DNA from: an uncultured Pelagibacteraceae bacterium
GTDB taxonomy: Bacteria; Pseudomonadota; Alphaproteobacteria; Pelagibacterales; Pelagibacteraceae
Length of the DNA stretch: 64,000 bases
Assembly: GCA_902555435.1 (NCBI GenBank)
Contig: CACDRL010000001.1
Span: 3,758 to 67,757 of the forward strand
Direction of reading: 5' to 3'
Every line of letters begins with the position of its first letter. Positions within the stretch are counted from its first letter, which is position 1. Position numbers and translations under genes: made by a program. The notes under the pieces were generated by a model, which was given only the letters and a program-made list of their open reading frames with translations, searched no databases and had not been told where the DNA came from. Below, in pieces: positions 50,031-52,905 of this stretch.

Positions 50031-50882
50031 TTAATCAGTTAGTCCGTCGGATCTAGCCTGATTTCTTTCTATATGAATTGGTAAAACTTTACCATAAATT
50101 GCTTTTGAGTGTTCTGGGGTATTTACTCTGTAAGGATCTAATACATAAGCTGGAATACACATATATCTTGATTTTTGACCTTCTACTTTTGTTACTCTAT
50201 GCAATGTAAATCTTCCTTTAAAAATTTGAAGATCTCCAGGTTCTAATTTGAGCCGTCTTACTCTTGATCTGTCTCCCTCTAAAACTTTTTTAACCTCATC
50301 AAAATTTTCATTTCCTGGTGCTCTTATATTTGGGCAATATTCAAAAATGCCTCCTTTTTCTGGTTTCTGTATCATCAAGCTTAGAGTGAATTCACAACTA
50401 TCAAAATGCCAAGGTAAAATACCATCAGGCTCCATAACATTGTAAGCATGACAAGCTAAAGGGTCTGCCCATCTATAAATAGGAGAAATTCCTAAACATG
50501 CAGAAACAAATTTTAAAAGTTCTTCAGTTTCATAGAGATATTTCATTTCTGAATTTTTTGGAAAGCAATCTGAATTTAAATATCCATTATACCTTTCCAT
50601 AAAGTTTCTCTTTGGATGTTTTTCAGGTAAACTTGGGTCATCTTTAGCATAAAGATATGCATTGATGCTTTCTTTAGACATATAAACTTCATCAAGTTGT
50701 TTTTCTAATTCTGAATTCATTACCTCTAAAGATTTTGGTAAAATAAAATTTGGAATAGTTGAACAACTATATAGGTCTAATTCTTCCTTACATTTTTTTA
50801 CTAAATTTTTAATGATTGGAGAATTTAAATCGTGAATAGGATATCTTTTTAAATCGACAATAGTGTTTAATCTATCGTTCAT
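50031..50882 (-). CDS. Fe(II)/2OG dioxygenase of the BesD/HalD-like family, hydroxylase-type (HxD)
   Basis: PWHFD, GG.FEYCP.IR, PGDL..F.GR.TLHRVT, distal Arg. Confidence 0.75.
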   Translation of the reverse strand: MNDRLNTIVDLKRYPIHDLNSPIIKNLVKKCKEELDLYSCSTIPNFILPKSLEVMNSELEKQLDEVYMSKESINAYLYAKDDPSLPEKHPKRNFMERYNGYLNSDCFPKNSEMKYLYETEELLKFVSACLGISPIYRWADPLACHAYNVMEPDGILPWHFDSCEFTLSLMIQKPEKGGIFEYCPNIRAPGNENFDEVKKVLEGDRSRVRRLKLEPGDLQIFKGRFTLHRVTKVEGQKSRYMCIPAYVLDPYRVNTPEHSKAIYGKVLPIHIERNQARSDGLTD

Positions 50883-50888
50883 TAAAGG

Positions 50889-51263
50889 TTATTTTAGTTT
50901 ACCCTCTTCTCTCATTTGAGCTCTAATTTTGGTAGCTGAAATTTTTTGAGTTTCTTCGTCTAAAACTATTTCCTCAATTTTGTATCCAACACCTCTTCCG
51001 TAACAAATATTTGTAATATTAGGTACCAACATAATTTTAAATTGACCTTCAAATTCAGGATTTAATCTTTCTTCAATATTTTTTTTTACAGTTTCAAAAT
51101 CAAATGGATTGTCATCAACACCTTGTACATCTCTTATTTGGATACAAACTTGTCCTGTTTTTTTAATTATCTCTTTAAACAAAGTATAATGTCCATCGTG
51201 AAAAGGTTGCCATCTTCCTAGCATTTGAGCTGTTGGTTTTTTGTTATCCCATTGATATGTCAT
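50889..51263 (-). CDS. HIGH-superfamily nucleotidyltransferase (cytidyltransferase/NMNAT-like), single domain
   Basis: GRWQPFHDGH (HxGH) and ISATKIR motifs. Confidence 0.8.
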   Translation of the reverse strand: MTYQWDNKKPTAQMLGRWQPFHDGHYTLFKEIIKKTGQVCIQIRDVQGVDDNPFDFETVKKNIEERLNPEFEGQFKIMLVPNITNICYGRGVGYKIEEIVLDEETQKISATKIRAQMREEGKLK

Positions 51264-51670
51264 TTTTTAATCTCCTCAATAATTAAAGGTGCCCATTTTT
51301 TAGCATCCTGCGTTGTTACATGATAGTTAAAGTTCTTTGGATTAACAAACATTTGATTAGTATCTTCAAATCTACCTTTCTTGATAGTATCTACCCAAAC
51401 TCTAAAATCAGCTGGAAATAAGCTTCTTGCCTCAGGTGTTGGGGCTACAAAGTCTGCAATTACATAATTACCTTCTGATTTTAATTTAAGAGCAAATTCA
51501 GCCATCCTTTTAGCCTGCCTTACTCTACCCTCTTCTGAAAAATCCCAATCATTTGCTGCTTTTCTAACTTCATCAGCATTCAATCTTTTAGCATTTAATA
51601 AAGGAGCCATTTCATCTGCTAAAGTTGTTTTACCTGCACCAGGTAATCCCATTACTAAAATTATTTTCAT
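51260..51670 (-). CDS. Short P-loop kinase, adenylyl-sulfate kinase (CysC)-like
   Basis: GLPGAGKTT, LNADEVR...DWDFS.EGR.RQA.RM, ADFVAP; only 136 aa. Confidence 0.75.
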   Translation of the reverse strand: MKIILVMGLPGAGKTTLADEMAPLLNAKRLNADEVRKAANDWDFSEEGRVRQAKRMAEFALKLKSEGNYVIADFVAPTPEARSLFPADFRVWVDTIKKGRFEDTNQMFVNPKNFNYHVTTQDAKKWAPLIIEEIKK

Positions 51671-52905
51671 TAAATGTCTTCTAACGGATGATGGGACATT
51701 AATTCAAGTCCATTTTCGCCAATTAGGTATTGTTGCTCAAGTTTAACACCTTCTTTACCACCAACTTTACCAATATAACTCTCAAGTGTAATTGTCATGT
51801 TCTTCTCAAAAGTTCCACCTTCTTCTCCACCGTCAGTTGGATATCTTATTTGAGGCCACTCATCACACAAACCAATTCCATGAACCATACATGAATACCT
51901 ATTTCCATAATACTCATCAGGCAAAACCCAAGATTTTTTTATAAATTCTTTAAAACTCATTCCTGGTTTTATTAATCTAAAATTATGATCAATTTGATTT
52001 CTGGCCATTGAATATAGTTTTTTTTGCTCATCATTAAATTTATGTCCAACTACAAAGGCTCTTGATATGTCAGCACAGTATCCATAGGGACCAACCATAT
52101 CTGTATCAAAAGCAACAATTTCTCCTTGTTGCATAACTTTATTACTACTCTCTTGCATCCATGGATTTGTTCTTTCACCAGACGATAAAATCCTACACTC
52201 AATCCACTCACCTCCATTTTCAATATTCGTTTTATGTAAAATTGACCACAATTCATCTTCAGTCATTCCTGGCTTAAGATCTGATCTCATTTTTGATACA
52301 CCTTTTTCTGCAACTTCTATTGCTGCTTTCATACAAGTCAATTCATCAGGTGATTTTATTACTCTTGCTTGTTCTAAAATCAATTTTGCATCTACAACTT
52401 CAATTCCTTCTTTATTTAAAGCTGTAACCGCAGGACCATTTAAAACATCGATTGCAATTTTTTTAGTTTTAAAATAATTTTTTGATAAATCTTTAACTTC
52501 ATTTATCCATTTTAATAATTGATTGTCTGCTTGGTCTCCATTACTAAAATAATCCCATGTAATTGCTGGTCTTATTTCGTCAATTAGATTTAAATGCTTC
52601 GATAATATTTCACAATTAAAATACTCATAAAGAATAGTTGGTCCATTGACTGGTACAAAACAATATCTTGTTAAATTATGCATATTATAGACACTCATGT
52701 TCACAGTATCTAAAGCATAACGAACATTCACTGGATCAAATAGAATACAAGCCTCTAAATTGTTTTTTACTAATTCTTTTCTAACCCTATCTAAACGATA
52801 TGATCTTAACTTATCGAAATCAATCTCGTCTTCTCTTAATCTTTTTTTAGTAATAAAATTTTGTCTTGGTTTTATCTCAGGAGCTATTTTTCTACTAAAC
52901 CTCAT
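51670..52905 (-). CDS. M24 metallopeptidase-fold protein, DddP (DMSP lyase)-like
   Basis: FDP.NVRYA, GGEWIE.R..SSG.RTNPW.QE, FDTD, ADISR, HGIGLCDEWP, E/E metal ligands. Confidence 0.8.
   Translation of the reverse strand: MRFSRKIAPEIKPRQNFITKKRLREDEIDFDKLRSYRLDRVRKELVKNNLEACILFDPVNVRYALDTVNMSVYNMHNLTRYCFVPVNGPTILYEYFNCEILSKHLNLIDEIRPAITWDYFSNGDQADNQLLKWINEVKDLSKNYFKTKKIAIDVLNGPAVTALNKEGIEVVDAKLILEQARVIKSPDELTCMKAAIEVAEKGVSKMRSDLKPGMTEDELWSILHKTNIENGGEWIECRILSSGERTNPWMQESSNKVMQQGEIVAFDTDMVGPYGYCADISRAFVVGHKFNDEQKKLYSMARNQIDHNFRLIKPGMSFKEFIKKSWVLPDEYYGNRYSCMVHGIGLCDEWPQIRYPTDGGEEGGTFEKNMTITLESYIGKVGGKEGVKLEQQYLIGENGLELMSHHPLEDI

Follow-up and report, generated by a model that had tools for sequence, protein, structure and literature searches.

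The closest described systems to the genes reported here combine a nucleotidyltransferase of the HxxH type with a kinase of adenosine 5′-phosphosulfate (APS). They include animal PAPSS1 and PAPSS2, with an N-terminal APS kinase and a C-terminal ATP sulfurylase, and the Sat-CysC protein of Aquifex (PDB 2gks). In sulfur oxidisers such as Allochromatium vinosum, sat stands at the head of a sat-aprMBA operon. SAR11 bacteria are among the ocean's most abundant organisms, and sulfate reduction is impossible for them. Genomes of SAR11 subclade Ia contain aprAB and cysC and lack sat and cysDNHIJ (PMC5069961; PMC3448164). A 2025 paper continued to describe the SAR11 pathway as incomplete and ranked aprAB with the genes subject to the strongest purifying selection (PMC12636525). 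These genes are core in SAR11. No enzyme is assigned to the step from APS to sulfate in a pathway that papers of 2012 to 2025 describe as incomplete, and we report here a testable candidate. It is a pair of small genes, KIN and NT, in a 64,000-nucleotide stretch of DNA from an uncultured Pelagibacteraceae bacterium (contig CACDRL010000001.1, positions 3,758 to 67,757, assembly GCA_902555435.1). This whole stretch is called the window below. It is AT-rich; the genome to which it belongs is 1.29 Mb and 94% complete, and its nearest named relative is Candidatus Pelagibacter sp. HIMB1495.

The pair is laid out as follows.

51260-51670, minus strand: KIN, a compact P-loop kinase placed by sequence and model in the APS-kinase family, 136 aa.
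50889-51263, minus strand: NT, a minimal, predicted HxGH nucleotidyltransferase derived from the NadM type, 124 aa.
51260-51263, minus strand: ATGA start/stop overlap between KIN and NT, 4 nt, read from the sequence.

These are the two overlapping mini-genes that an initial annotation had recognised in the window. The ATGA overlap is predicted to join KIN and NT by translational coupling, and other lineages have an in-frame fusion at this junction.

We read KIN-NT as an activated-sulfate module consisting of a minimal sulfate-adenylylating enzyme and an APS kinase, and put the probability of this reading at about one half. NT would interconvert ATP and sulfate with APS and pyrophosphate, as a NadM-derived, non-orthologous stand-in for ATP sulfurylase. 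KIN would phosphorylate the 3′ hydroxyl of APS to give 3′-phosphoadenosine 5′-phosphosulfate (PAPS), a step that homology supports well. The sulfate/APS step is given to NT and the APS/PAPS step to KIN because the two domains are repeatedly fused or paired, in some cases with a canonical CysC, and because they recur in sulfur contexts.

KIN contains the Walker A motif GLPGAGKT together with LNADEVR, DWDFSEEGRVRQAKRM and ADFVAPTP. It matched the Pfam APS_kinase profile (PF01583) with 41.8 bits (cut-off 21.1), over profile positions 4-90 of 152 only. It scored 33.3 against TIGR00455, for which the cut-off is 138.7, and missed the NCBIfam equivalog cut-offs. In alignment with canonical CysC the lid of KIN is about 17 residues shorter, and the half-length Pfam match and the missed NCBIfam cut-offs are explained by this short lid. 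When a profile of the KIN family was compared with the PDB, the first 23 matches were all APS kinases (4e-13 to 8e-6). Shikimate kinase was the next kinase type (1e-4), and no NadR/Nrk kinase was present among the 60 matches listed. The AlphaFold2 model of KIN had a mean confidence (pLDDT) of 95.4. In a Foldseek search it aligned to APS kinases across the whole query with query TM-scores (TMq) of 0.82-0.85, and APS kinases made up 42 of the top 50 matches.

The APS-kinase motifs LDGDxxR, GFSxxDRxENxRR and FISP correspond in KIN to LNADEVR, DFSEEGRVRQAKR and DFVAP. KIN retains the Arg of LDGDxxR, the Phe of GFS and both Args of DRxENxRR; relative to conserved positions of CysC, Asn is replaced by Gln and Ser by Ala. 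By sequence and modelled fold KIN belongs to the APS kinases, and the earlier description of it as a kinase with APS kinase motifs, short of CysC, was borne out. We read it as a genuine, compact 3′-kinase of an adenosine 5′-phospho-X nucleotide, most simply of APS.

Both motifs noted previously in the transferase, GRWQPFHDGH and ISATKIR, were found in the 124-aa NT protein, together with DNPF and a family-specific, invariant YGRxVGY. The latter loop reads YGRGVGY in the window and YGRDVGY in phage relatives, and is no more than reminiscent of VGRDHAG in Sat. NT matched the Pfam CTP_transf_like profile weakly (22.3 bits, cut-off 21). Against the NCBIfam models for nicotinamide mononucleotide adenylyltransferase (NMNAT) it scored 27.5 with NF002243 (cut-off 127) and 23.4 with TIGR01527 (cut-off 181), at positions 4-47 only, and the Pfam and NCBIfam matches were N-terminal only. 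The archaeal phosphopantetheine adenylyltransferase (PPAT) model NF001985 gave a weak full-length match of 23 bits. With a profile of the NT family, the best PDB matches were the NadM NMNATs 1f9a and 2qjt (approximately 1e-9), aligned over residues 13-75 and the ISATKIR helix (91-116). The alignment skips NadM residues 69-108 and 134-168, and some 25 residues from the middle of NadM and 35 at its C-terminal end have no counterpart in NT.

The NT model (pLDDT 91) gave PPAT and NMNAT as its best Foldseek matches. These were weak, with E about 3e-3 and TMq 0.5 over approximately 78 residues. NT is of NadM-type ancestry. The NadM/PPAT match accounts for the ATP-binding half of NT, and the assignment of the second substrate lies beyond profile and fold. 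Attempts to read the substrate of NT from either were uninformative, the NadM/PPAT match covering the N-terminal half only and the Foldseek E-values being weak.

We surveyed 151 genomes of the SAR11 family, the window's own genome included. KIN was found in 56 of these and NT in 71, and no KIN was found apart from NT: the two either adjoin or share one frame of 258-289 aa. Such single KIN-NT open frames occur in genera g2, g4, g5 and g9 (the window belongs to g1). The pairing is far above chance, and the two genes are one module. The PHROG family phrog_10255 covers both proteins, and fused KIN-NT genes are present in phages of Xylella, Xanthomonas, Stenotrophomonas and Clavibacter. A hidden Markov model search of the library with the NT profile gave 104 clusters at E≤1e-30, with KIN-NT fusions making up about half of the best 150. 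Cluster P0263 is a fusion in the opposite order, so that fusions are known in both orders. More than 536 IMG/VR viral contigs encode relatives, and among the best 80 of these loci the genes are fused in 35 and adjacent in 34. The module is therefore adjacent or fused across SAR11, SAR86, other proteobacteria and viral contigs, and this survey of fusions and neighbours, which the initial annotation had called for, returned one module with recurrent sulfur neighbours. A homologue search with a fused SAR11 copy returned only near-identical, nameless marine sequences, which were uninformative as to function. In one g2 genome (G047, L028:7258-8649) a contig ends in a 463-aa frame that joins an NT domain to a class-III aminotransferase.

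ATP sulfurylase (PF01747) was found in five of the 151 family genomes and in none of the 21 of the window's genus, and neither CysD nor CysH was found in the window's genome. The gene aprA is present in 60 of the 151. NT accompanies it in 54 of the 60, the other six being metagenome-assembled genomes of 62-93% completeness. NT also occurs in 17 of the 91 aprA-negative genomes, mostly as divergent or fused copies within glycan islands. As AprMBA is present in SAR11 genomes that lack Sat and CysDN, NT is proposed for the step from APS to sulfate.

The aprMBA genes lie in an island of conserved order: pyridoxal-phosphate lyase, major facilitator superfamily (MFS) transporter, a variable slot, aprM, aprB, aprA, p116, TauE, (YeiH), SuyBA and Xsc. 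Most SAR11 genera have KIN-NT, or NT by itself, in this sulfite island; KIN-NT or NT stands before aprM in genera g4, g5, g9, g11 and g13. The contents of the slot, and the position of the HIT-family gene found there in the window's genome, are as follows.

g4, g9 and g11: KIN-NT-CADD.
g13: KIN-NT-pabBAC.
g5: CADD-NT, with NT directly before aprM and on the same strand as aprM-aprB-aprA.
g1, the genus of the window: pabBAC-HIT, KIN-NT having moved to the window locus.
Window's genome (G000), contig C4, L124:6331-6726, outside the window: HIT-family gene.

In another Pelagibacteraceae lineage, a more divergent KIN-NT stands tail-to-tail with aprA. Genomes of g5 that are 94-98% complete contain NT and aprMBA without an APS kinase and without Sat. 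It therefore appears that NT works without KIN beside Apr. The remaining occupants of the slot between MFS and aprM (L020, L026, L124, L224-L233) are, depending on the genus, CADD/TenA-like (PF03070/PF14518) or pabB-pabA-pabC-like, apparently alternative ways of reaching p-aminobenzoate from a single position.

Sulfur genes also accompany the module outside SAR11. In the alphaproteobacterium AG-404-B13, KIN-NT comes after xsc, a Na/Ca exchanger gene and cysQ, in that order, and pta, ald and a gene for an aminotransferase are close by; its CysQ and Xsc both exceed the NCBIfam cut-offs. KIN-NT of SAR86 follows a gene for a YeiH 'sulfate exporter'. A divergent NT of 117 aa lies behind a full-length APS kinase (PF01583, 101 bits), and its neighbours include genes for a TauE permease and a pyruvate-kinase barrel protein. 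Divergent NT/APS-kinase modules in NeuB/DegT glycan islands (L030/L131, L023, L024, L025, L029, L087) are always adjoined by such a barrel-only gene (PF00224, approximately 330 aa). In cluster P0166 (seven members, on contigs of up to 36 kb) and in an OCS116 bacterium, NT is fused to a textbook CysC, whose half of the protein scored 212 bits with PF01583 and has all motifs.

Among the best 80 viral loci the commonest neighbour of the module is a sulfotransferase gene. This gene precedes the module on its strand in 27 loci, and in 14 of these no more than 30 nt separate it from KIN. The encoded proteins matched PF13469 with 47.9-61.9 bits and PF00685 with 40-46 bits, all over the cut-off, and their mutual identity ranges from 23 to 100%. 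The second commonest neighbours are 2-oxoglutarate (2OG)-Fe(II) oxygenases (for example at L243 and L245). A logic in which a substrate is hydroxylated and then sulfated is conceivable for the oxygenase and the module.

In the window's genome two sulfotransferase genes scored strongly (97 and 96 bits), and two further, weak ones lie beside a full-length CysC. A CysQ homologue lies near the apr island. The CysC locus (contig C6, L123:2968-9495) carries, besides the two weak sulfotransferase-like genes, a gene for a 778-aa PPDK_N/PEP-utilizer protein, a GATase/C26 protein, NeuB and a CMP-sugar synthetase-like gene. We take this gene set to be partly reminiscent of the Campylobacter O-methyl-phosphoramidate (MeOPN) genes.

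From these arrangements a route may be proposed. In SAR11, organosulfonate-derived sulfite, released by way of SuyAB and Xsc, would be converted to APS by AprBA, and NT running in reverse would turn APS into sulfate and ATP. KIN would divert some of the APS to PAPS, which would feed the genome's sulfotransferases (at least four are present), and CysQ would remove the by-product 3′-phosphoadenosine 5′-phosphate (PAP). The phage version, in most cases a fusion and frequently preceded by a sulfotransferase, would be a self-contained sulfation cassette. We infer what NT acts on, that it can run backwards in SAR11 and that PAPS goes on to sulfotransferases. A broader proposal, to which we give slightly less than even odds, is that NT founds a previously unrecognised family of NadM-derived minimal sulfate adenylyltransferases and closes the SAR11 AprBA pathway with a yield of ATP. 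Together with KIN it would then be the smallest known PAPS synthase, a cassette mobilised by marine and soil phages.

Of the three roles suggested in the initial annotation, the stripped-down route from sulfate through APS to PAPS is the one favoured, by the sequence and fold of KIN, the NT-CysC fusions, the aprMBA island, cysQ and the sulfotransferase cassettes of phages. Phosphorylation and then nucleotidylation of a hydroxylated osmolyte is unsupported, because KIN resembles a 3′-kinase of an adenylylated product and not of a free metabolite. The third role, salvage of pyridine nucleotides, has only the NadM ancestry of NT in its favour and is considered below.

Several observations weigh against a sulfurylase role for NT. 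The nearest relatives of NT are the NadM NMNATs, and neither its sequence nor its modelled fold gives a tie to ATP sulfurylase. Structure comparison, proposed earlier as a check on both proteins, succeeded for KIN; for NT it gave weak PPAT and NMNAT matches only, and ATP sulfurylase was absent from the PDB profile matches as well as from the Foldseek top 50. The window's NT has no match to PF01747, and a divergent relative reached 20.7 bits, under the cut-off of 24.3. The Sat motifs QxRNPxHxxH and VGRDHAG are missing, and the 124 aa hold no PUA-like N-domain. In g1 KIN-NT lies outside the island, and the seven islands of this genus that were examined all have a HIT gene (131 aa, PF01230, 66 bits) instead, with approximately 100 nt between it and the aprM that follows. 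APS phosphorylases are known among HIT enzymes, and the HIT protein could therefore supply the missing APS-consuming step; it is a candidate APS phosphorylase or hydrolase. In some g5 genomes (L027, L093) aprM-aprB-aprA-p116 are deleted and NT is kept directly before TauE. The island also holds unrelated p-aminobenzoate genes, so that synteny within it is weak evidence when taken alone, and counts over related genomes are non-independent samples. Neither aprA nor Sat was found in five non-SAR11 carriers of the module, and the link to Apr is therefore lineage-specific. Finally, AprBA could give KIN its APS without any sulfurylase.

The last of these points leads to an alternative in which only KIN takes part in sulfate activation. 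APS would come from AprBA or from a host CysDN, NT would be an accessory in salvage or removal of PAP or AMP or in regulation, and in SAR11 HIT would be the real APS-to-sulfate enzyme. The position of HIT directly before aprM in seven of seven g1 islands, its presence inside the island in g5, where the homologue sits between TauE and SuyB, and the lack of a Sat signature in NT are all consistent with this. However, g5 retains NT right before aprM without any APS kinase, a source of APS is still required in g2 and in the phage cassettes, where Apr is absent, and the close fusion of the domains, found in either order, speaks for reactions that follow one another. We regard this alternative as improbable. 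Somewhat less doubtful, though still unlikely, is that the pair makes a PAPS-like 3′-phospho-nucleotide donor of a group other than sulfate. NT would join a nucleoside monophosphate to a nucleophile of the phosphate, sulfite, selenate or amidate type, KIN would add the 3′-phosphate, and enzymes of the sulfotransferase fold would transfer the group. This would mirror the Campylobacter MeOPN pathway, in which a CysC homologue phosphorylates CDP-amidate. The pocket for the second substrate of NT is left without assignment by profile and fold, and KIN differs from CysC in its lid, in the change from Asn to Gln and in missing the NCBIfam equivalog cut-offs. The divergent modules that accompany a pyruvate-kinase barrel gene in glycan islands of the NeuB/DegT kind, and the genome's own CysC beside PPDK_N/PEP-utilizer and GATase genes recalling those for MeOPN, point the same way. 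Set against this, members of the same NT family are fused to a canonical CysC (212 bits), the aprMBA, cysQ, TauE and YeiH contexts all indicate sulfur oxyanions, and the viral neighbour enzymes exceed the sulfotransferase cut-offs.

NAD salvage of the NadR kind, with KIN phosphorylating nicotinamide riboside and NT adenylylating nicotinamide mononucleotide, would fit the NadM matches of NT at about 1e-9 and the shared GRFQPFHxGH, NPF and ISxTxxR motifs. A NADAR gene also precedes the fused KIN-NT gene in the Xylella phage Bacata (Salvovirus). This was the one Salvovirus neighbourhood read; the ten commonest viral neighbour clusters scanned do not include NADAR, and a NADAR linkage was rejected. 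NadR/Nrk kinases are absent from the listed matches of KIN, which are led by APS kinases only, the alignment of NT to NadM is partial, and its NMNAT score is far below the cut-off (27.5 against 127). NadD is present in the genome, and NAD-related neighbours do not recur, whereas sulfur neighbours do. Such a salvage role is very unlikely. A housekeeping coenzyme A pair, in which NT as PPAT would replace CoaD and KIN would be dephospho-CoA kinase, was suggested by the lack of a CoaD match in the window's 94%-complete assembly and by the weak full-length match to archaeal PPAT (NF001985, 23 bits). Canonical CoaD is nevertheless found in each of the other 20 genomes of the genus, alongside NT, and in 121 of the 151 family genomes. 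NT is therefore no substitute for CoaD, and the gap in the window's genome probably reflects incomplete assembly. The genome also holds CoaBC, CoaX, a RibF-like gene and a CoaE-like gene that scored 61 bits, just under the cut-off of 65.55. The coenzyme A reading is effectively refuted, and neither gene of the pair proved to be a housekeeping enzyme.

The genes that flank the pair in the window are the following.

51670-52905, minus strand: M24 'DddP-like' gene, upstream of KIN.
50031-50882, minus strand: 2OG-Fe(II) oxygenase gene, HalD-like, downstream of NT.

Packing is tight, as the initial annotation had noted. The ATG of KIN overlaps the stop codon of the M24 gene by one base (TAATG at 51670), and the oxygenase gene begins 6 nt past the stop of NT and is followed by an enoyl-CoA hydratase gene. 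The coupling inferred from it is not conserved. Comparison within the genus showed the M24 and oxygenase genes to be gained and lost while KIN-NT persists, and among 80 related loci both neighbours were found in 17 and neither in 43. An operon of KIN-NT with these two genes was rejected, as the flanks vary within the genus and are entirely different elsewhere; the link is local. The M24 protein scored 353 bits against an NCBIfam DddP cut-off of 600, its gene lies within a DMGDH/methyltransferase cluster, and it may not be a dimethylsulfoniopropionate lyase. In one complete genome of the same genus the NT gene consists of two overlapping frames (G058:C1:283931-284301), the result of a frameshift or a sequencing error.

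A search of the literature available to it found no prior description of a small sulfurylase, a phage PAPS cassette or the KIN-NT family. If the activated-sulfate reading is true, the module completes the route by which the sulfur of organosulfonates (taurine, sulfolactate and products of dihydroxypropanesulfonate) leaves the cell as sulfate. It would give SAR11 an additional substrate-level yield of ATP and a source of PAPS for its sulfotransferases, and would resolve the puzzle of 'aprAB without sat'. It would also mean that sulfate adenylylation arose a second time, independently, in the HxGH superfamily. Viral contigs carry the module by the hundred, in many cases preceded by a sulfotransferase, and this points to undescribed phage-driven sulfation.

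Compared with known systems, KIN-NT resembles PAPSS1/2 and Aquifex Sat-CysC in its combination of domains. The kinase-first order of the common fusion is that of PAPSS, and the kinase domains are homologous. The transferase is different: NT has 124 aa in place of approximately 390, no family-level homology to PF01747, no PUA-like domain and neither QxRNP nor GRDHAG, and its activity is predicted. KIN shares with CysC (PF01583, TIGR00455) the P-loop and the whole core fold (TMq 0.85), and has counterparts of its LDGDxxR and FSxxxRxxxxxR motifs. It differs in its length (136 aa against 170-200 aa), in its shorter lid, in the Gln and Ala substitutions and in matching half of the Pfam profile. With the NadM NMNATs (1f9a, 2qjt, 1hyb) NT has in common GRFQPFHxGH, NPF, ISxTxxR and the first beta-alpha-beta-alpha-beta unit. 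It lacks their middle segment and C-terminal helices and adds the invariant YGRxVGY loop, and its context is sulfur, not NAD. NadR, a marginal match to the NT half (1lw7, E 0.075), likewise combines an HxGH transferase with a P-loop kinase, but in the opposite domain order, and the kinase here is APS-kinase-like. Relative to the sat-aprMBA operon, NT of g5 occupies the place of sat immediately upstream of aprM-aprB-aprA, although the gene here is not sat, and in g1 HIT fills that place and the pair lies elsewhere. KIN-NT would thus be a new, minimal version of a known two-step system.

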